Below, piece by piece: positions 14,670 to 23,075 of a stretch of 64,000 nucleotides of DNA. The DNA is from Candidatus Saccharimonadales bacterium (GTDB taxonomy: Bacteria; Patescibacteriota; Saccharimonadia; Saccharimonadales; JAYRRP01). A program made the position numbers and the translations under genes. Each line of letters begins with the position of its first letter. Position 1 is the first letter of the stretch. Location: NCBI GenBank assembly GCA_041906765.1, contig JAYRIP010000004.1:68223-132222 (forward strand), read 5' to 3'. The notes under the pieces are model-generated. The model worked only from the letters and a program-made list of their open reading frames with translations. It did no database searches and was not told the origin of the DNA.

Positions 14670-16664
14670 TCACCTGCAAAACCACGCAATGAACCAATCA
14701 CAGCGGCCATAACGGGACGTAGATTTCTCTGATTCCTGACCGGAGTTGTCGAGTGCGGTAACGGTATAGGTGTAGCCGGTGAAGCCTTTGACGGTGTTAT
14801 CAAAGGCAACGATCTTACCACTTGTAGCTTTTGTAATATTCGCGGCAGTAAGTTCAGAACCGTTTCGATACAGCTTGTAGTTGGTGGCGCCACTGACCGG
14901 ATCCCACTGCAAGTTAAAGCCAGTACTGGCGACAAAGTTACGGGACAGCAGCGTAAAGTTACTAGGTGTCTCAACTGGCGGCGGAGGAGGAGGCGGTGGT
15001 GGTGGCGGCGTAACCGTACTATTGGCAACGTTTACCGCGACACTGGTACTGGCGTTATTGCCAGCTGCGTCATAGGCTTTGGCCGTGACGGTATGGCTGC
15101 CGTTAGACAAGCCCGTGGTATCTAGACCGGTGGTATAGGGATCAGAACTGTCGCTAAAGTTCAGGCTACCGTCGACCAGGAAGTCTACTTTAGTTACAGT
15201 TGTATTATCTGAGGCATTGGCAGTAACGGCCAGCGAGGAGCCGGAAACCGTTGCACCGCTGGAGGGAGCAGTGATACTGACCGTGGGTTTAGTGGTGTCG
15301 GGGGGAGGGGGTGGGGTAGTGGTAGTAACAGTACTGAATAATTTATCCTGATTAGCTGTCAGTGCAGCTCTAATTTTCTGGCCATCAGCAGTATCATTGG
15401 CAATAGCAGCACGCAGCACCGGTTGTTGAACCTCAACATAAGAAGCGTGGTAATTTACAGCATTTTGTATAGAGGTGGCAAATTGATCTGGAGATACAAG
15501 CACACCGCCACCACCGATACCGGAAACTCCACCGATCATCTGATAACCGATGATACCTTTATTGACTTTCCCATCAACCGGATTGTAGTTCTCGCCAACC
15601 CATCTACTAAAGGTTTCCGGGCCATCGGGTGACGCATTAAGACCATTATATTGAATGAAGAATCCTCGCTTGCTACTGGTACCTTGAGGATAATTACCCC
15701 AGTTACTTCTCGACGTTTGAAACTCCTTTGCCAAGAAGGGGTGTCTGTTTATATTTGCCTTGTCAGCATTATATTTTCCATCCGCATCACACAGTCCCAG
15801 CCCACCAGCCTTGGCAAGTGGCTGAGTAGGGAAATTATCTGCAAATACTTTGTCATAAAAATTGAGCGAGGCATCATTATAAGCATTTCGCACATCGTCA
15901 TAATCAGCTTTGCTGTTATTGTTCCAATCTTTATATTGTGCCGATGCCTTATATTGACTTATCCACGCTTGAGCTTCGGTGCCGTTTTCCGGACAGCCTG
16001 GCATGTATGGCTCGCCATAATGTTTCCATGGCGCCGTCGGGAATAAGATAAGGTTAGGATACTCCGATAACTTTTTGCCATTTACTGTATGGTTTGCCAA
16101 TTGACTAACAAATGTCTTCCAGTCAGCTTGGGTCGTTTTATCCCAAAAGACAGGATTGTAGTTATAGCCCGTACTGGCGACGTCAAATTTAATCGTTTCA
16201 GCCGCAGGATTGCCGCCGTGCGGGCTGAATAACCAGCTGGGCAGCCCACTTTTCTCATCAGGCTTCGTGCTGCTATATCCAAACATCACCCTAATCATCA
16301 TAGGTTTATTGCCGGCAGCTACACTTGCATTTATTGCATCATCAAAAACTTTAAAATCATATTGTCCGTAGGTTGGTTCAACGTCAGACCAATTAACCCG
16401 TACGCTTAATCCAGCCACCAATGGATTTTTGAGATCTTCTGGGATCGGCTTATATACAGACTTACCGATCATCATATAATAGCCCTTATACTCTGTTGAG
16501 GTTTCTGCTTTACCCACAAGCAACAAATATATGCCCAGTGCGGCAAATCCAAAAATAATAATACCAACTAGGGGTAGACTAAAACGCTTTTTTTGACGGA
16601 GCTTATTTTTGCTGACACTTACACGATTTTTCATCACTTTTTTAGTTTTTGGTTGTTTTTTCAT
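14670..16664 (-). CDS. membrane-anchored multi-domain glycoside hydrolase-like protein (TIM-barrel GH-like domain, Ig-like domain, poly-Pro linker, fibronectin type III domain)
   Basis: It has an N-terminal K-rich signal anchor. VRVNWSDVEPTYGQYDF resembles the GH5/GH35/GH42 clan A start motif. The segment VTKVDFLVDGS..TVTAKAYDAAGN is an Ig-like domain. A PPPPPPPPPPPP linker follows, and the C-terminal NYKLYRNGSEL..YTYTVTALD is FN3-like. Confidence 0.6.
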   Translation of the reverse strand: MKKQPKTKKVMKNRVSVSKNKLRQKKRFSLPLVGIIIFGFAALGIYLLLVGKAETSTEYKGYYMMIGKSVYKPIPEDLKNPLVAGLSVRVNWSDVEPTYGQYDFKVFDDAINASVAAGNKPMMIRVMFGYSSTKPDEKSGLPSWLFSPHGGNPAAETIKFDVASTGYNYNPVFWDKTTQADWKTFVSQLANHTVNGKKLSEYPNLILFPTAPWKHYGEPYMPGCPENGTEAQAWISQYKASAQYKDWNNNSKADYDDVRNAYNDASLNFYDKVFADNFPTQPLAKAGGLGLCDADGKYNADKANINRHPFLAKEFQTSRSNWGNYPQGTSSKRGFFIQYNGLNASPDGPETFSRWVGENYNPVDGKVNKGIIGYQMIGGVSGIGGGGVLVSPDQFATSIQNAVNYHASYVEVQQPVLRAAIANDTADGQKIRAALTANQDKLFSTVTTTTPPPPPDTTKPTVSITAPSSGATVSGSSLAVTANASDNTTVTKVDFLVDGSLNFSDSSDPYTTGLDTTGLSNGSHTVTAKAYDAAGNNASTSVAVNVANSTVTPPPPPPPPPPPVETPSNFTLLSRNFVASTGFNLQWDPVSGATNYKLYRNGSELTAANITKATSGKIVAFDNTVKGFTGYTYTVTALDNSGQESEKSTSRYGRCDWFIAWFCR

Positions 16665-16851
16665 TTTTAATCTTAAATTTATTTTATTGACTAATTATAG
16701 CATTATAGCACGCCAGGCAAATAGCTTAGCTCCGTTGCATTATTATGATTGGATTACGTAGATAAGAGCAGCTCAAAAACACCTAATAACTATACATTTA
16801 GTTATTCACTGCTGTGGCTTACTGTTTGCTATATATAGATTTTGCGCAAGA

Positions 16852-17406
16852 CTAAAAGTCGGTAGCAGTAAGCGCATCCGCATGTTGATCTAGCCAAGCA
16901 TTATCTACTGCGATAATATCTGCATCGTAAGACGAACCATTTGCATTCGTCACAGTTATAATATCGCCAACTTTTCCACCAATGAGTGCCTTACCAAGTG
17001 ACGCTTCCACGCCTACTACTGTAAGCTCTTCTTCATTGTTTTCATTTTCCCAAGCCTGTTGATATTTATGGGGATTCAAGGAAGCTATACCGACAATAAG
17101 CGCATCATATGCATTAGGTGAAAACGTGTCCCTAATCCGCACCAAACTACCAAGTGCAATTTGTTCAGCGTCTATCTCTGGATAATTTTCAACTTCAGAA
17201 TGAATCAGCGCATCAGATAAGGGTCCGTATGTATTGTCTATCAGTTTCATGCGGTCACGAACTTCATCGTATGCCGCATTGTCGTGCCAGACATTTCCGC
17301 TTTCAACAGCATCACCCATATCATGAGCTGCCTGTTGATTGGCAATCCTACCTTCTTCTAACTTATTATTCAACCATTTTAGTTCGTGGGGCAATATATT
17401 TGACAT
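16852..17406 (-). CDS. GreA/GreB-family (Rnk/Gfh-like) transcription factor homolog
   Basis: The N-terminal helix GDAVESGNVWHDNAAYDEVRDRM resembles the GreA coiled coil. The C-terminal LTVVGVEASLGKALIGGKVGDIITVTNANGSSYDADIIAVD matches the GreA FKBP-like domain signature (S..SPLG.ALIGKKVGD). The probable start is MSNILPHEL at 17406. Confidence 0.5.
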   Translation of the reverse strand: MSNILPHELKWLNNKLEEGRIANQQAAHDMGDAVESGNVWHDNAAYDEVRDRMKLIDNTYGPLSDALIHSEVENYPEIDAEQIALGSLVRIRDTFSPNAYDALIVGIASLNPHKYQQAWENENNEEELTVVGVEASLGKALIGGKVGDIITVTNANGSSYDADIIAVDNAWLDQHADALTATDF

Positions 17407-17429
17407 GACAGATAGTGTATACAACAGTA

Positions 17430-17458
17430 TTGCTACAGTCAATACGTTATTGTATAAT
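17430..17458 (+). promoter_or_regulatory. sigma70-type promoter (TTGCTA-N17-TGTATAAT) for kinase-MTase-CYTH operon
   Basis: -35 TTGCTA at 17430-17435, a 17-nt spacer, and an extended -10 TGTATAAT ending at 17458, about 65 nt upstream of the 17524 start. Confidence 0.4.
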
Positions 17459-17523
17459 ATCTTTACAGTAAACGTTGGGCTTAAAGAGACATACTCGGTA
17501 GCTTATTTTCAATTCACAAAATT

Positions 17524-18252
17524 ATGGCCTACTATGAATCCAGTCACGGAGCGATTATAACCTTTAACGGACCAGATGGTTGCGGAAAGAGTACGGTTGC
17601 AAAAACAGTAGCTTGCACAATAGACAACGATAATTCAGAAACGCTCTTGATAGGTTCTAGTGAATTTAAGAATTGGTTACACCCGGATATATTTAAACGC
17701 TATATTGGCTCTGTTGATAGGCTGGAAAGAGGAACCGCAGTTAACGCGTCGACAAAAGAAAAAACAGCCTTATACGAAGACATAGCTATATGTCTCTACG
17801 GTCTCGCTGCACAGCATGCAAAAAATCGTGGTGATGTCATTGTACATTCTGATCCTTATCTAAAACGATTGATCTGGGCGAAAATGCATATGTCAGAAGA
17901 TAACTTCTGGCAATATGCTACCTATCTGGACGATTATATGAGTGATAAGGTGGGCGATAATTTTGCTTCACATGCAGTAACAATGCACATAAGTGCAGAA
18001 GATACTTATGGGCGCATCCTACAAAGAGATACAGTAGACGAATACGATCCTTCCAGCAAAGAAGAGACACTCACGCTTGTGAGTGCGGTTGACTATGTAG
18101 AGTCGCATTTTCTTGGAGATACCCGGCCATACCCACGACTCTTTGGTGTTGCTGTACTGCACATTAGCAATCCTTCTGTGCAACCAGATTTTATGCAGAC
18201 ACGCCTGGATGATTTCGCAGCCCAAGTAAATCAGTTTGTAAAAGGTTGCTAG
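17524..18252 (+). CDS. P-loop nucleotide kinase, deoxynucleoside kinase/dTMP kinase-like
   Basis: Walker A IITFNGPDGCGKST is followed by VIVHSDPYLKRLIWA (compare ERSVYSDRYIFA of dNK) and a lid-like segment ISAEDTYGRILQRDTVDE. AT-rich codon usage. Confidence 0.6.
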   Translation: MAYYESSHGAIITFNGPDGCGKSTVAKTVACTIDNDNSETLLIGSSEFKNWLHPDIFKRYIGSVDRLERGTAVNASTKEKTALYEDIAICLYGLAAQHAKNRGDVIVHSDPYLKRLIWAKMHMSEDNFWQYATYLDDYMSDKVGDNFASHAVTMHISAEDTYGRILQRDTVDEYDPSSKEETLTLVSAVDYVESHFLGDTRPYPRLFGVAVLHISNPSVQPDFMQTRLDDFAAQVNQFVKGC

Positions 18253-19454
18253 AGATGATGGAAAACAAGAATACAATTCATTATTTAGACAATTCAATAA
18301 ATCTTCACTGCGACGAAAAGAGTCAGCAGATGACTCAAGCTATTTCCGCGAGACATGAAGGTGCTGTTGTTGTGGAGATAGGACCGGGTGGTGGCGCAGC
18401 TCTTATGGGAGTATGTGACCAGAATATTCAAAGAGGAGACCAACAACTAAAAGATATACATATAACCACTGTTGAACTTTTCTCCTCACAATCTTCTACA
18501 CTTATAGAAGCCAGCCAACGATTACAAGAACAGGGAGCAACTGTTAATCATATTCAAGGCAACGCTACGAATCTACCATTCGCAGACAAGTCTGTAGACA
18601 TAATAAATTGTTCATCTGTATTACACGAAGTATTTTCATATGAGGGCGGTAGAACAGCACTCGTAAAGACTCTTCAAGAAATAAAGAGAATAACAAAACC
18701 AGGAGCTGATTTATTATATCGAGACGTTTATCCCGTTGAAACTAGTTTGCTTACACCGATTAAACAAAGATATGATCAACCGTCATGGATTGAGTTTGTA
18801 AATCGATTTATACCGTATTATTTAAAAGATAATAATCTTTATACCAAAAGCTCAGTAGATATCTCAGAGCACGAGGGAGTGTTACTTGCAAATATACCTG
18901 CAGGCTTGGCACGAGAAGTCCAACGACACTACATAACCTTTAGAGACCAATTAATTCGTAGCGGCATTCTCGGCACCAAGATTGATACTGATCGTTATGA
19001 TGAAACAGAGTGGGTCCGTTGCGCTAATGGATTTGAGAAAAAAATATATTTATTGCAACAGAACGGCAATTCATTGCTTGCTCATGATTTGCCTGTACAA
19101 GAAGACAGAACGGGTATTTTTGTGCCTGCTTCAGATTTTGATCAGTTTATCGACAATCAACTTGCACGATTTTTCAAAGCATTGCAACGTAAAGATCCAG
19201 AAGTAGAAGCCATATACGATTCCTGGCTTAAGCGCGAGGGTCATGAATCGTACATATATGGATCTGTGAGTGAAGTTACTGACATGTTACGTACCTCTGG
19301 CCAAGGATGTAATGATGAAGAGCACTTCACGATAACCTCTCCCGGTGCTTACACTATAGCTGAAAGAGATTACTACACTAGTTATTTAAAAAGAGTACTC
19401 GGCGAATATGCACTACCAGACAGAAAATTGATAATTTCTCTCGTAAAGAAATAA
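18246..19454 (+). CDS. class I SAM-dependent methyltransferase with C-terminal domain of unknown function
   Basis: Motif I VVVEIGPGGGA, motif II-like VDIINCSSVLHEV and KPGADLLYRD lie in the first roughly 200 aa. The last 200 aa have no recognised motif. The start overlaps the kinase stop by 7 nt. Confidence 0.6.
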   Translation: MLEMMENKNTIHYLDNSINLHCDEKSQQMTQAISARHEGAVVVEIGPGGGAALMGVCDQNIQRGDQQLKDIHITTVELFSSQSSTLIEASQRLQEQGATVNHIQGNATNLPFADKSVDIINCSSVLHEVFSYEGGRTALVKTLQEIKRITKPGADLLYRDVYPVETSLLTPIKQRYDQPSWIEFVNRFIPYYLKDNNLYTKSSVDISEHEGVLLANIPAGLAREVQRHYITFRDQLIRSGILGTKIDTDRYDETEWVRCANGFEKKIYLLQQNGNSLLAHDLPVQEDRTGIFVPASDFDQFIDNQLARFFKALQRKDPEVEAIYDSWLKREGHESYIYGSVSEVTDMLRTSGQGCNDEEHFTITSPGAYTIAERDYYTSYLKRVLGEYALPDRKLIISLVKK

Positions 19455-19466
19455 TATAATATAACG

Positions 19467-20024
19467 ATGATAGAACATGAAAAGAAATACAGCATTCGTT
19501 TGACAGGAAAATTGCGGCAAAAAATTTTAGATTTTGGCTTTTTTGAAAAAGGCGATTCGCACCAGAGAGATACGTACTATAGTCGAAAAGATGTAGATTT
19601 TATGAAGACTAAGGAGTGTCTACGTATTCGCGAAGAAAGTGATACCGCTGAACTTACATATAAGCCACCTACAACTAAACAAATGCTTGAAAGTGATTCA
19701 ATATGGAAACAAGAGATCAATATAGCTATAAATCTAAAACAAATCGATGATCTAGATAAAATTTTGCAAGCGCTCGGCTGTAAAAAACTATGTACTGTGG
19801 ACAAAAAGCGTAAAACTTTTGTAAAACAACACATTACTATAGTAATAGATACCATTGCAAATCTTGGTAATTTTGTTGAGATTGAAATTTTAAATGATAA
19901 ACAGGATGATTCTGCAATAGATCAAATCAATAAAATAGCAAAAGAATTGGGCATTAATCAACAAAAGGTTGTCACTCTACCATATCGTGACTTACTTATG
20001 CTGTCACAAGGTTACACCTTTTAG
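19467..20024 (+). CDS. CYTH-domain protein (triphosphate tunnel metalloenzyme; CyaB/thiamine-triphosphatase/RNA-triphosphatase superfamily)
   Basis: The N-terminal ExExK motif (MIEHEKKYSI), LRIRE and the C-proximal ExE motif (VEIEIL) are arranged as in CYTH domains. It is 185 aa and very AT-rich. Confidence 0.6.
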   Translation: MIEHEKKYSIRLTGKLRQKILDFGFFEKGDSHQRDTYYSRKDVDFMKTKECLRIREESDTAELTYKPPTTKQMLESDSIWKQEINIAINLKQIDDLDKILQALGCKKLCTVDKKRKTFVKQHITIVIDTIANLGNFVEIEILNDKQDDSAIDQINKIAKELGINQQKVVTLPYRDLLMLSQGYTF

Positions 20025-20193
20025 CTGTACTTTAAATTGGTTCATATTAACTTTTAATGAGAACTATACGAATATAAAATCTCAAAGAAGTTATCTGACA
20101 GTCTACCTAAGAATCACCAAACCGATCACTAAGACATTCTGAAAGCCCACGTCATCTATGTCGCTAGGACCAGATGGTAGCTAAGCTGAAATT

Positions 20194-20279
20194 GGTGCCG
20201 GGGGAGGGACTCGAACCCTCATGTCGCAAGGACACACGATTTTGAGTCGTGCGCGTCTACCGGTTCCGCCACCCCGGCG
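20194..20279 (-). tRNA. tRNA-Leu (anticodon CAA)
   Basis: The reverse complement is GCCGGGG..CACGA-CTCAAAA-TCGTG..TGTC-CTTGC-GACA..GAGGG-TTCGAGT-CCCTC-CCCCGGC-A-CCA. This gives a 7-bp acceptor stem, anticodon CAA, long variable arm, T-arm and encoded CCA. Confidence 0.85.
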
Positions 20280-20364
20280 AGAATGGGGTATATCTGATAG
20301 GATGGGCAGGGCAATTGTACTATACTTAAGTCGCATACTCTAGTTATCCTTATATATCGTAAAA

Positions 20365-21567
20365 ATGGACAATGAAGATAGCCGCACTACTAACTCAGGA
20401 ACCGAGAAGCCGCATGTGAGCGATGCAGCCGATTTAATCCGGCGTAAACTCGAGGCTATCTATGCGCAGGAACCAAGTGCCAAAGAAGAAATTCAGGAAA
20501 TTACCCACACCAGCCATCTAACATCGCACCAGCGATATATGGCGCAGCTGACCAAATCCGGCCTCTCTTTGGCTGAAATACAAACCGCGTGGCACGAATA
20601 CTACTCGCGCCTTTCCGACCAAGGCAAGCATGAGGTCTGGCAAGAATTTTATGAGACCCATAAAAAAGAGAAGGAAAGTGACCAAGCCGCGGTTGTCACC
20701 ATGCAAAGTCCTGTCCCATCTGAAACTTTAAAATTCCACGGGGCACCCAAGCATAAATCCCGTTTGCATAAATCAAAAACATCTCTGCAAACTGTCGCGC
20801 ATGTCAAAGACCAGTTACTAAAAAAACCGCGGCACGCTTCACGCAAAGCACTCAGCCGCAAACAGCACGCCCAGTCGCTGATGTTCGGCATTTCTTTTGG
20901 TTCCATAGCACTACTGGTATTTCTGTTCGGGTTTTTTAACGAACGGTTCGTGGCTCCCTTTATCACCCCAAGCCGGCAGGTCAGCTCCACGCCAATCATC
21001 AACGACCCGAACGATACCAGCGCCGGCCCGGAGACTAAAGTAATTATTCCAAAAATTAACGTTGAGATACCGGTAGTCTATGATGAAACATCTGTTGAGG
21101 AAAAAGCTGTCCAAAAAGCTTTGGAGCGTGGCGTATTGCACTATGCCACTACTCCCTCGCCAGGCGAAAAGGGCAACAGTGTTATTTTTGGCCACTCCAG
21201 CAACAACATTCTTAATCAAGGCAAGTACAAGTTTGCATTTGTTCTTTTAAGCCGTTTGGAATCAGGGGACACATTTTATTTGACATATGGAGGCACCCGT
21301 TACGCCTACAAGGTATATGAGAAAAAAATCGTCAAACCGAACGAACTTGGCGTGCTCGGTGACACCGGTAAACCAGCCACAGTAACACTTATTACATGCG
21401 ATCCGCCCGGCACTTCGCTAAACCGACTAGTGGTCATTGGAGAGCAAATTAATCCGGATCCAAACGCCAACAAAGCTAGCACGGCAGCAAAAACAGATAC
21501 ACAGCCCGCTATCATTCCAAGCAATGCCCCAAGCCTGTGGCAACGCATTAAAGACTTATTTCATTAA
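20365..21567 (+). CDS. sortase-family transpeptidase with long N-terminal cytoplasmic region
   Basis: A TM segment LMFGISFGSIALLVFLFGFF is followed by the sortase fold with His motif IFGHS, catalytic Cys motif TLITCDPPGT and an Arg-containing C-terminal strand. Confidence 0.7.
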   Translation: MDNEDSRTTNSGTEKPHVSDAADLIRRKLEAIYAQEPSAKEEIQEITHTSHLTSHQRYMAQLTKSGLSLAEIQTAWHEYYSRLSDQGKHEVWQEFYETHKKEKESDQAAVVTMQSPVPSETLKFHGAPKHKSRLHKSKTSLQTVAHVKDQLLKKPRHASRKALSRKQHAQSLMFGISFGSIALLVFLFGFFNERFVAPFITPSRQVSSTPIINDPNDTSAGPETKVIIPKINVEIPVVYDETSVEEKAVQKALERGVLHYATTPSPGEKGNSVIFGHSSNNILNQGKYKFAFVLLSRLESGDTFYLTYGGTRYAYKVYEKKIVKPNELGVLGDTGKPATVTLITCDPPGTSLNRLVVIGEQINPDPNANKASTAAKTDTQPAIIPSNAPSLWQRIKDLFH

Positions 21568-23075
21568 GGCTTCAATTTTAGGGCAGTTTGAGTCAGGGCA
21601 TATTTCCCTGGCGCCCCCACTGAAGGTCCAACTGTAAAGAGAAATACGCGGTCGCGATCAAACAAGGGAATATGCCCCGGGCTGATAGGTGCCAGAGTCT
21701 GTAAATTGATGCCATCATAATCAAACACAATGGTCTTACCCTCCACATTGAGAAGCAGCCTGTGTCCGTCCATCCAAGTCGCAAAGTTGTCAGATGCTAC
21801 CGGTAACTTTACGTCATATGAAAATCGCCGGTCATACTCAGCGTCATACACGGCAAATTTACTCCCATTTTGGGCTGCAATGAAACGGGCATTGTCCGAA
21901 AAACTGATACGTTTCACCTTGTCCAGCCTAAGTATCATAATGGGGGCAATCTCTTGTTGGTTGGCATGTTTGGCCACTTCTATCGGGTCTTTATAGACAT
22001 AAACCTTATCCTCATTCTTTGAGCCAGCAGCTGCGTACCATTTATTATCAAACTTAGCCAAATCAAGTACGTATTCGGCGCCCGTTTTAAAGTAGTGAAT
22101 TAAGTGCTCCGCATCACCATCTCTGATCTTCAACGCCAACATGCCAGGCTTCTTGCCATCATCAGTAATATATAGCATGGTATTATCGCCGTGCGGTTTA
22201 AATGCAACCACCTTAGTCAAAAATGGTGTTAATGTCTTTGGTTTCACATCGGCCACTTGTAAAAGCTGAGAGATTGCTTGGTACACATATAACTTGTCGA
22301 ACTGTTTGTCACGCATGGCGACTTCAGTCATTTCCAGACCAAGCGTTCGGTTCACGTTAAACGAAGCGGCTGGGGTCTCGCGGTCAACCATAATGAATTC
22401 ATACTTGTCGCCAAAAGTGTGCTTGAGTAGCACGTGACGATTATCCGTCGACCACTCAACAAATTGATATGCTTGAGAAGCGGGGGAAGTAGTCAAGAGA
22501 TTATCCGGTAATGTCAATACTGTCACTGGCAACGTTTCTTTTGATAAATCATATAGGTCAAATTTCTGCAAAGTTGCAGTTTGTTGTATGAGCAACCACT
22601 TGCGGTCAGGGCTTTCAGTTGATAGCCCTGGCACGGTGCTATAGAGCTGTGCATCTTTAGTCACCAGTTTTTCAGGGAAAAGGGTAGGATAAATAAACCT
22701 CTCTATACTGCCACCCTCCAAGGTGAAGTTACGCTTCCACGGCCGGTACCCATCGCGTTTGAGTTCCAGGCTATACTGACCGACCGGAAGCTCCATTCTG
22801 GTGGCAGTCCGATCCTTATATCGTTGTCCATTCAAATAAACATCGGCTGATTCGGGGTGAGCATCAATAAAAACCATCCCATTTTGCACTACTTCACCTG
22901 TCTTGCGATCAAAATCATATCCATAGGCGCGGAATAACAAGACAAGCGAACCCAGTGCCAAGGCAACCGCGACCAGAAAATAACCAATATAGAGGCGTAT
23001 TAGGTGCTGCTTTTTTTTCTTAGGGTCGAGAAAATCCATAGATTCCAGGAGATAGTGTACTCCAATCATGGCCAA
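21564..23075 (-). CDS. membrane-anchored protein with PEGA-like domain and beta-rich C-terminal region
   Basis: An N-terminal TM is followed by HPESADVYLNGQRYKDRTAT..LPVGQYSLELKRDGYRP, which resembles a PEGA domain. The C-terminal 350 aa are beta-strand rich. It overlaps the sortase stop by 4 nt. Confidence 0.4.
   Translation of the reverse strand: MAMIGVHYLLESMDFLDPKKKKQHLIRLYIGYFLVAVALALGSLVLLFRAYGYDFDRKTGEVVQNGMVFIDAHPESADVYLNGQRYKDRTATRMELPVGQYSLELKRDGYRPWKRNFTLEGGSIERFIYPTLFPEKLVTKDAQLYSTVPGLSTESPDRKWLLIQQTATLQKFDLYDLSKETLPVTVLTLPDNLLTTSPASQAYQFVEWSTDNRHVLLKHTFGDKYEFIMVDRETPAASFNVNRTLGLEMTEVAMRDKQFDKLYVYQAISQLLQVADVKPKTLTPFLTKVVAFKPHGDNTMLYITDDGKKPGMLALKIRDGDAEHLIHYFKTGAEYVLDLAKFDNKWYAAAGSKNEDKVYVYKDPIEVAKHANQQEIAPIMILRLDKVKRISFSDNARFIAAQNGSKFAVYDAEYDRRFSYDVKLPVASDNFATWMDGHRLLLNVEGKTIVFDYDGINLQTLAPISPGHIPLFDRDRVFLFTVGPSVGAPGKYALTQTALKLKP

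Follow-up and report, generated by a model that had tools for sequence, protein, structure and literature searches.

The Candidatus Saccharimonadales contig JAYRIP010000004.1 carries an AT-rich block of four genes, which lies at 16670-20190 of the 64-kb stretch that we analysed (the whole of this stretch is called the window below). These genes code for a P-loop kinase, a class I S-adenosylmethionine (SAM) methyltransferase, a CYTH protein and a divergently transcribed Gre-like factor. The locus poses a simple question: do these proteins belong to a single system and, if so, what would this system do? A first-pass annotation, made from the DNA letters and the open reading frames (ORFs), had grouped the three enzymes as a functional unit and had treated the divergent GreA/Rnk-like gene as a neighbour. 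Comparison with related loci retains this unit and extends it: the divergent gene is present, and it is a member of what we call the module.

Conservation of the four-gene module

We fetched 80 loci containing a relative of the methyltransferase gene and searched their six-frame ORFs iteratively with hidden Markov models. The CYTH gene lies at most about 3 kb from the methyltransferase gene in 74 of these loci, mostly directly downstream of it. All four genes occur together in about ten distinct Saccharibacteria loci, the methyltransferases of which range from 56% down to 30% identity, and at least six gene orders and orientations are seen among them. Written with Kin for the kinase gene, MT for the methyltransferase gene and Gre for the Gre-like gene, these are Gre(-) / Kin-MT-CYTH (the window, L004 and L012), CYTH(-) / Kin-MT-Gre (L006), Gre(-) / MT-CYTH-Kin (L008), Gre-MT-Kin / CYTH(-) (L010), Gre-MT-CYTH-Kin (L025 and L104) and CYTH-Gre-MT-Kin (L031). 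The kinase and the Gre-like gene join the methyltransferase-CYTH pair in Saccharibacteria-type loci only, and three Gottesmanbacteria-type loci combine the methyltransferase with the kinase.

The same association is found from the side of the Gre-like gene. A scan of metagenome contigs in which the Gre-like alignment (the pattern around the W-H-D-N residues of its tip) was the sole query yielded 35 loci, many of them on short contigs. At least one of these enzyme types is present within the available flank in 24 of the 35, and in all of these except L125, where a NUDIX gene is ∼2.5 kb away, an enzyme gene directly adjoins the Gre-like gene. The same methyltransferase family together with CYTH is found in 11 loci (with the kinase as well in three), and 13 further loci carry analogous parts. 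The gene immediately upstream of the Gre-like gene in L097 encodes a 568-amino-acid (568-aa) fusion of NUDIX, class I methyltransferase and CYTH domains, and a thymidylate-kinase-like gene is close by. L099 and L103 contain a Gre-like gene, a thymidylate-kinase-like gene (PF02223, 4.5e-21), a NUDIX-methyltransferase fusion and a second Gre-like gene, while L122 has a row of Gre-like, CYTH and NUDIX genes. In L092, L094 and L012 the full module is accompanied by NUDIX genes.

The theme thus survives rearrangement, fusion and non-orthologous replacement, the strongest type of evidence that genomes can offer for a shared function: the parts of the module almost certainly work together, and the grouping of kinase, methyltransferase and CYTH in the first-pass annotation is borne out. 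That annotation had also stated that no described pathway or defence system combines the three enzymes. Our literature searches returned no description of such a module; the only related mention concerns 'TPR-GreA/B-PIN' conflict systems, the architecture of which differs. PADLOC-DB 2.0 likewise contains no defence family that fits, all matches being at the P-loop level or to generic methyltransferases (E 6e-5 or weaker). The module is rare and apparently undescribed, and would represent a new kind of system assembled from known superfamilies.

Two loci resembling Rosetta-stone fusions of methyltransferase and CYTH (L019:5971-7833 and L077:5665-7467) were rejected as such. They are decayed copies with in-frame deletions that remove the ExExK motif of CYTH and, in L077, also half of the C-terminal domain of the methyltransferase. 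In the Gottesmanbacteria-type loci, which lack CYTH, a conserved 230-aa protein is encoded directly upstream of the methyltransferase (L079:5048-5839, L081:5215-5913 and L082:5140-5832). Its assignment by eye as a NUDIX protein was dropped; it has no match in a Pfam or PDB profile search.

Organization and composition of the block

The four ORFs and the tRNA-Leu(CAA) gene listed by the first-pass annotation are all present, as seen from the ORF list and ARAGORN (Table 1). The start sites of the Gre-like and methyltransferase genes follow gene calls on identical contigs, which place them at ATG 17406 and ATG 18255, respectively. A Shine-Dalgarno-like stretch, AAAAGG, is located 9 nt upstream of ATG 18255, and the methyltransferase gene most likely begins there. 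With this start, a 2-nt gap separates it from the stop codon of the kinase gene, in place of the 7-nt overlap originally described.

Table 1. Features of the block and its border, in window coordinates
Feature	Position	Strand	Size or remark
Gre-like gene	16852..17406 by gene calls; 16852-17442 as longest ORF	(-)	184 aa
Divergent intergenic region	17407..17523		117 bp, between the Gre-like and kinase genes
Kinase gene	17524..18252	(+)	242 aa, P-loop kinase
Methyltransferase gene	18255..19454 by gene calls; longest ORF 18246-19454	(+)	399 aa
CYTH gene	19467..20024	(+)	185 aa
tRNA-Leu(CAA)	20193..20278	(-)	ARAGORN; Rfam 59 bits

The promoter proposed upstream of the kinase gene exists as a σ70-like site, TTGCTA-17-TATAAT, at 17430-17458 (+). 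It is directed into the kinase gene and is the best such site in the block, with 10/12 matches. The TG that precedes TATAAT is the end of the spacer and not part of a canonical TGnTATAAT element, and the number of promoter-like sites in the region is not above chance (16 observed versus 12.7 ± 3.2 expected); the site is a consensus match only.

The GC content of the block is 38.3%, compared with 46.5% in the rest of the window. This is the lowest value of any 3.5-kb stretch in the window; stretches elsewhere have a mean of 46.4%, a standard deviation of 1.8 and a minimum of 41.9%, so that the block lies about 4.5 standard deviations below the mean. The GC content at third codon positions is also low, 25-36% in the four module genes versus 43-50% in 11 other genes of the window. 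The AT-richness noted at first sight is therefore real, and only the range given for the flanks, 48-50%, has to be widened to 44-50%. The tRNA-Leu(CAA) gene, the 3' end of which points toward the block, is the border of the low-GC block and lies outside the module proper. On the other side, the Gre-like gene is adjoined by a gene for a 664-aa protein (14670-16664, (-)), which has a Big_7 domain, 12 consecutive prolines and an N-terminus resembling a signal anchor. Its GC content is normal (46%), and it is hence outside the low-GC block.

The CYTH protein has triphosphatase-type motifs

The CYTH protein matches Pfam family PF01928 with 82.6 bits (cut-off 23.2) and has the expected ExExK motif at residues 3-7. 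It also scores 100.4 bits against TIGR00318, the NCBIfam family of class IV adenylate cyclases (AC-IV), for which the cut-off is 57.95. A hit to CyaB was among the outcomes that the first-pass annotation had named as speaking against its grouping of the three enzymes. This score alone is not decisive, because the same kind of annotation proved to be wrong for SaTTM, which is likewise annotated as a class IV cyclase yet was shown to be a triphosphatase without cyclase activity (PMC8233210).

Three motifs that separate AC-IV cyclases from triphosphatases have been defined (PMC8233210). In AC-IV proteins HF is found four residues before ExExK (HFxxxxExExK), the first arginine of x-R-x-R is replaced by a small residue and the second glutamate of the ExE motif in strand β8 is replaced by alanine (PMC8233210). 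The HF motif is absent from the CYTH protein of the window, the N-terminus of which, MIEHEKK, leaves no room for it before ExExK, and it is absent from all methyltransferase-linked homologues. Both arginines (CLRIR) and both glutamates (EIE) are retained. The actinomycete homologues have CLRVR and ETE, and the overall pattern CLR[IV]R and E[IT]E is seen in essentially all methyltransferase-linked homologues. The protein thus shares the CYTH superfamily and the TIGR00318 score with CyaB and none of the three cyclase features; the absent HF together with the intact R-x-R and ExE speaks against an identity as class IV adenylate cyclase.

Among solved structures, PH1819 (3e-15) and the triphosphatase SaTTM (1e-13) are the nearest relatives, while the genuine cyclase YpAC-IV matches only in part (E=1e-4). 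The motif pattern shared with triphosphatases of the SaTTM/PH1819 type is ExExK, small-x-R-x-R and ExE. The CYTH protein is a triphosphate tunnel metalloenzyme with a triphosphatase-type motif pattern and a predicted activity to match, and the TIGR00318 hit is, on this motif evidence, an annotation trap and no argument against the module. CYTH proteins of this kind would be systematically misnamed as adenylate cyclases. SaTTM, which hydrolyses triphosphate and NTPs, also shares its operon with one SAM-using enzyme (SAM hydrolase) and one nucleotide enzyme (NMNAT). Here, in contrast, the partners are the methyltransferase, the kinase and the Gre-like factor, and some sister modules carry CYTH proteins of a second clade (L010:10122-10712(-), L031:4667-5269 and L018:5163-5909, and as a second copy in L004:9746-10348). 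At the position that is diagnostic of thiamine triphosphatases (W/Y-x-R-x-R), this clade has an aromatic residue, F or W, and the CYTH protein of the window a cysteine.

The methyltransferase and the kinase

The N-terminal half of the methyltransferase matches Methyltransf_11 with 43.9 bits (cut-off 21.2) and has the features of a class I SAM-dependent enzyme: motif I (E/DxGxGxG), the acidic motif II residue and a Rossmann fold. Its top fold matches are small-molecule methyltransferases. The cap methyltransferase Ecm1 ranks 14th, with hundreds of Rossmann-fold matches that are equivalent, and a sequence profile has no match below E=0.08 in the PDB. No Pfam or NCBIfam family covers residues ∼175-399, in agreement with the unassigned C-terminal region of about 200 aa reported at the outset. 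This half (∼200-220 aa) is conserved and is rich in arginine and aromatic residues, and a search for structural relatives of it found none. The seven invariant arginines of the methyltransferase suggest a polyanionic substrate. With this protein a new methyltransferase family is defined, and no fold relative of its 200-aa domain is known.

The family is rare. A word-indexed search of 5.8 billion proteins gave 20 matches. When 1.84 billion cluster representatives were searched exhaustively with a profile, 71 of them matched at E<1e-30 and 505 at E<1e-3. In an alignment query of 185,579 species genomes (one genome per species) relatives were found in 104. Most of these species belong to the Actinomycetota (Nocardia, Streptomyces, Nocardiopsis, Kitasatospora and Pseudonocardiaceae) and the remainder to the Patescibacteria (Saccharibacteria and Gottesmanbacteria). 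Remote relatives of 690-760 aa from Peregrinibacteria and other bacteria of the candidate phyla radiation (CPR) have the methyltransferase and its C-terminal domain fused to a P-loop kinase of the CoaE/AAA_17 type, a fusion that was checked for P0086, P0087, P0101 and P0102.

The kinase had been described as deoxynucleoside-kinase-like. Pfam does not carry this assignment, as only P-loop-level matches are obtained (dNK at E=0.083, with both dNK and Thymidylate_kin below threshold). A profile of 11 homologues does, with matches in the PDB to a deoxynucleoside kinase (8puu, 4e-7) and a deoxyguanosine kinase (2jas, 5e-7). The sequence contains the P-loop GPDGCGKST, a DSDPY motif and two invariant LID arginines. 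In hhalign it aligns with the thymidylate-kinase-like proteins encoded beside other Gre-like genes over 171 columns with a probability of 95% (E=3.4e-8), and these proteins score 47-71 bits, under the NCBIfam dTMP-kinase cut-off of 83. Members of this family are very scarce, forming 12 clusters among 5.8 billion proteins. A single-sequence AlphaFold2 model has a pLDDT of 38 and is unusable. The kinase probably belongs to the thymidylate-kinase/deoxynucleoside-kinase lineage and is predicted to act on nucleotides or nucleosides, and not on polynucleotides.

The Gre-like factor

The Gre-like protein consists of an N-terminal coiled coil followed by a C-terminal Gre domain (PF01272, 27.8 bits versus a cut-off of 26.9). 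A profile of nine homologues matches the GreA/Gfh1 chimera (PDB entry 4wqt, 1.8e-15), Gfh1 (2etn, 8e-13), GreB (2p4v, 4e-9) and GreA (1grj, 3e-8). The matches to 4wqt, 2etn and 1grj cover most of the protein, while the GreB match begins at the tip. The best NCBIfam GreA score is 44.2 bits against a cut-off of 139 (82-95 bits for sister Gre-like proteins), and weak NCBIfam matches to 'nucleoside diphosphate kinase regulator' are also obtained.

The tip of the coiled coil reads G-N-V-W-H-D-N-A-A-Y, compared with G-D41-L-x-E44-N-A-E-Y in GreA. The HMMER alignment places asparagine on GreA Asp41 and aspartate on Glu44, with an insertion of one residue. Trp40, His41, Asp42 and Asn43 are invariant, the pattern among homologues being G-N-x-W-H-D-N-A-x-Y, and in one subgroup the position of Asp41 is occupied by tyrosine. 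D41N is a classical change that abolishes cleavage stimulation by GreA. The protein differs from GreA and GreB in that the acidic pair Asp41/Glu44 is not kept and in that its scores remain below the NCBIfam cut-offs.

Loss of the canonical acidic tip pair is shared with the non-cleaving Gre-family members Gfh1 and Rnk, of which Gfh1 is also among the best PDB matches. The G-N-x-W-H-D-N tip with its one-residue insertion is nevertheless distinct from theirs, and the coiled coil is full-length, unlike the short one of Rnk. We know of no case in which Gfh1 or Rnk is encoded with a kinase, a methyltransferase and a triphosphatase. Given its recurrence at rearranged loci, we regard the Gre-like gene as a conserved member of the module and not as a bystander. 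In L099 (2585-3070 and 4913-5449), L103 and L124 the enzyme genes lie between two Gre-like genes that both have the W-H-D-N tip and are on opposite strands. A canonical greA gene was found neither in the window nor in the fetched loci, which is uninformative because these cover only fragments of each genome.

Distribution and origin

Evidence on the origin of the module is mixed. A GC anomaly and adjacency to a tRNA gene are both present, and a classical tRNA-integrated island was considered; it was rejected, as there is neither an integrase nor an att repeat. All ORFs of the block are accounted for and none is an integrase. The att-like copy of the tRNA-Leu 3' end that the first-pass annotation had proposed to look for is absent from the window (with up to three mismatches allowed). 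A 15-nt repeat, GGACCAGATGGT[T/A]GC, occurs at 17569-17583, in the P-loop codons of the kinase gene, and at 20167-20181, 12 nt from the 3' end of the tRNA. Chance alone predicts roughly one pair of this kind in 6.8 kb, and the repeat is probably meaningless.

A GC deficit of the module is seen in the window (-7.6 points), L109 (-8.4) and L031 (-5.0) and is close to zero in the other loci, and the GC content of the window module (38.8%) is close to that of the L004 lineage (39.2%). This locus-specific deficit and the L004-like value fit transfer among Saccharibacteria. A tRNA gene lies within 300 bp of the module in four loci (tRNA-Leu in the window, tRNA-Met in L012, tRNA-Glu in L010 and tRNA-Asn in L041), more often than the tRNA density of the window would predict by a rough post hoc estimate. 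In L008, where the methyltransferase is only 30% identical, a few kb separate the module from the tRNA-Leu(CAA), sortase and PEGA block that the window also has, an arrangement that suggests old residence or a preferred site. The corresponding segments (20193-23075 in the window and L008:11807-14695) contain the tRNA-Leu(CAA) gene, the sortase gene and a gene for a 490-503-aa protein (with PEGA in L008), and are inverted relative to the module.

In actinomycetes the methyltransferase-CYTH pair is accessory and its flanks vary. It is usually accompanied by a divergent regulator, which is a 460-aa helix-turn-helix (HTH) protein in 25 loci, a GntR-UTRA protein in 11 and an HTH-peptide-deformylase fusion in seven. 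The last of these is unusual for a regulator: a protein of ∼500 aa with an XRE-type HTH_31 domain and a complete peptide deformylase (PF01327, 1.4e-30), encoded divergently from the pair at L022:4332-5858(-) and with homologues in L029, L066, L069, L088 and L091. One actinomycete-type pair resides in a prophage-like element (L130:5983-13193; IMG/VR UViG 2852736999_000001), 1 kb from an N6/N4 DNA methylase gene and 3 kb from genes for the large terminase subunit and the portal. Another copy of the methyltransferase is found at the end of a linear Streptomyces albidoflavus plasmid (L133; NZ_CP109595.1, 386-8296), where CYTH would lie beyond the end of the record; its neighbours are annotated as a DNA-binding protein, a helicase-associated-domain protein and a PIN-domain protein. 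A tblastn search with the actinomycete methyltransferase had no match among 50,697 isolated phage genomes.

A possible function for the module

The linkage of the four genes holds over wide divergence, the superfamily of each protein is assigned, the CYTH protein has triphosphatase motifs and the Gre tip is altered. From this we infer that the substrate class is a nucleotide, that the three enzymes may act in a defined order and that the Gre-like protein may act on RNA polymerase (RNAP) together with the product. To our knowledge, Gre-fold proteins act on RNAP only and Gre factors are known just as stand-alone regulators. We propose that the module combines a Gre-like factor of the RNAP secondary channel with a three-enzyme pathway on free nucleotides that would yield a methylated nucleotide, and give this reading a probability of roughly 0.4. 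It is proposed because the Gre fold acts on RNAP, the enzyme lineages fit free nucleotides and the set as a whole follows the logic of modified-nucleotide synthesis.

In such a pathway the CYTH triphosphatase would shorten the phosphate chain of a nucleoside triphosphate, a step that a NUDIX hydrolase would take over in sister modules. The methyltransferase would then methylate the resulting nucleotide, with its arginine- and aromatic-rich C-terminal half gripping the phosphates and the base. The kinase, being similar to thymidylate and deoxynucleoside kinases, could re-phosphorylate the methylated product toward the triphosphate. The coiled coil of the Gre-like protein would enter the secondary channel, and its tip, devoid of Asp41 and carrying the invariant W-H-D-N, might either keep the modified nucleotide in the active centre, in the way that DksA works with ppGpp, or allow the cell's own polymerase to tolerate or remove it.

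Several observations weigh against this proposal. The actinomycete loci contain the methyltransferase and CYTH with neither a Gre-like gene nor a dedicated kinase, and because they carry the pair alone, the core chemistry needs no Gre partner. The C-terminal half of the methyltransferase, having no structural relative, is uninformative on the substrate. When the module kinase is compared in hhalign with the kinase fused to the Peregrinibacteria methyltransferases, the P-loop alone matches and no homology is found beyond it. Gre-like genes with the W-H-D-N tip also occur in housekeeping contexts (with TyrRS and RecG genes in L107 and with holA in L110), and therefore this tip may be a lineage trait or the normal Gre type of some CPR bacteria. 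Finally, an Rfam search of the block and 11 related loci returned tRNAs only, with no riboswitch or other RNA element that would hint at a ligand.

Going further, one might picture a methylated-nucleotide pathway and a Gre-fold factor of their own acting jointly on RNAP in CPR bacteria, either as a new alarmone and its cofactor, comparable to ppGpp and DksA, or as a chain-terminating weapon with Gre-like immunity, the core chemistry being common to actinomycetes. We consider this wider picture doubtful, if worth stating.

Alternative explanations

The alternative that survives best, although we still think it unlikely, is a role in conflict or defence. The product of the enzymes would be a methylated nucleotide that is toxic, such as a 3'-O-methyl-NTP-like chain terminator, and that blocks transcription by a phage or competitor; the Gre-like protein would protect or rescue the cell's own multisubunit RNAP, and CYTH and NUDIX would limit the toxic pool. 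Viperin-type systems pair the synthase of a nucleotide analogue with a kinase of the thymidylate-kinase family (CMPK2), which is a suggestive precedent. The mobile traits of the module fit as well: the block stands out in the window by its low GC content, the deficit recurs in L109 and L031 and is absent from the others, which suggests transfer, four tRNA identities are found within 300 bp of module copies, and the family is rare and patchy. The actinomycete pair sits in variable neighbourhoods with XRE- or GntR-type regulators, and copies occur in the prophage-like contig and at the plasmid end. These points are set against the lack of a PADLOC family match, the shared tRNA-Leu, sortase and PEGA surroundings of the 30% identical L008 module, which resemble long residence, and the absence of homologues from isolated phage genomes. 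No recognised defence genes are seen among the conserved neighbours, though these neighbours were not scanned against PADLOC. Moreover, the change of Asp41 to asparagine speaks against the cleavage activity that rescue would need.

A role in RNA 5'-end chemistry appears improbable to us. Here CYTH would remove the γ-phosphate of nascent triphosphorylated RNA, the methyltransferase would methylate the end or a cap-like nucleotide, the kinase would re-phosphorylate monophosphate ends, NUDIX would decap and the Gre-like factor would tether the enzymes to RNAP. The set of CYTH, methyltransferase, NUDIX and kinase has counterparts in eukaryotic and viral capping and recapping, where a triphosphatase, a cap methyltransferase, a decapping enzyme and a 5'-kinase take part, and a transcription factor is conserved in the module. 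The first-pass annotation had drawn this comparison with capping, which our results do not support. No guanylyltransferase or other nucleotidyl transferase is present in any variant of the module. CYTH is of the small SaTTM/PH1819 type, nearest to enzymes acting on small molecules, and not of the Cet1 type, the kinase is probably not of polynucleotide-kinase lineage, and the Ecm1 match does not stand out from equivalent ones. In addition, Gre factors reach the 3' end of the RNA through the secondary channel and not its 5' end.

Resistance or detoxification is, if anything, slightly less probable still. The enzymes would inactivate a nucleoside antibiotic or RNAP inhibitor from actinomycetes by methylation, phosphorylation or triphosphate hydrolysis while the Gre-like protein shields the secondary channel. 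The distribution is attractive in this respect, since the family is almost exclusive to Actinomycetota and Patescibacteria. Saccharibacteria in culture live as epibionts on actinomycetes, self-resistance commonly relies on P-loop kinases and methyltransferases, and actinomycete copies adjoin ligand-responsive regulators of the GntR-UTRA type. However, no biosynthetic gene cluster is a conserved neighbour in the ∼65 actinomycete loci, three inactivating chemistries against one drug would be unusual, and the recurring set of dephosphorylation, modification and phosphorylation resembles a pathway more than alternative means of inactivation.

Chance adjacency, or a set of ordinary housekeeping genes (tmk, greA and cyaB), is strongly disfavoured and very improbable: the NCBIfam name of the CYTH protein and the housekeeping contexts of some W-H-D-N Gre-like genes are in its favour, but the co-occurrence outlasts at least six rearrangements, divergence to 30% identity, fusions and non-orthologous replacement, the kinase and Gre-like protein of the window and their scanned counterparts in sister loci score well below the NCBIfam dTMP-kinase and GreA cut-offs, the cyclase motifs are absent from CYTH, and the loci vary too widely in GC content and identity for the co-occurrence to be an artefact of one clonal lineage.

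Comparison with known systems

The repeated grouping of a Gre-like factor, a kinase, a methyltransferase and a polyphosphate hydrolase points to a link between a modified nucleotide and transcription that has so far gone unrecognised. It offers a testable entry to the biology of Saccharibacteria and other CPR bacteria, in which most genes have no assigned role. The core pair, being common to Actinomycetota and their Saccharibacteria epibionts, may also be a case of gene exchange between host and epibiont.

The pairing of kinase and methyltransferase, or of triphosphatase and methyltransferase, is shared with Pnkp/Hen1 RNA repair and the capping apparatus. The module differs from both in that Pfam and NCBIfam detect no phosphatase, ligase, Hen1-type or guanylyltransferase domain, and the parallel to Pnkp/Hen1 raised in the first-pass annotation is likewise not supported by the probable lineage of the kinase.

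The module recalls DksA/TraR and ppGpp, a channel factor that works with a dedicated nucleotide, in that a coiled-coil protein homologous to GreA, GreB and Gfh1 is genetically tied to enzymes of nucleotide metabolism. In contrast, RelA/SpoT homologue (RSH) synthetases are not as a rule encoded beside dksA and are unrelated to the enzymes of the module. DksA also has a fold of its own, in contrast to the Gre fold here, and binding of a ligand by the Gre-like tip is purely a supposition on our part.

For the enzymes there are parallels in phage nucleotide hypermodification and viperin-CMPK2, in which a (d)NTP is hydrolysed, modified at a lower phosphorylation level and re-phosphorylated by a dedicated kinase of the thymidylate-kinase family. 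The modifying enzyme of the module is instead a member of a new SAM-dependent methyltransferase family, neither thymidylate-synthase-like nor a radical-SAM enzyme, and the Gre-like factor is the sole polymerase partner that the module encodes. In its proposed mode of working the module would stand closest to DksA-ppGpp, viperin-CMPK2 and phage nucleotide modification, while being a member of none of them.

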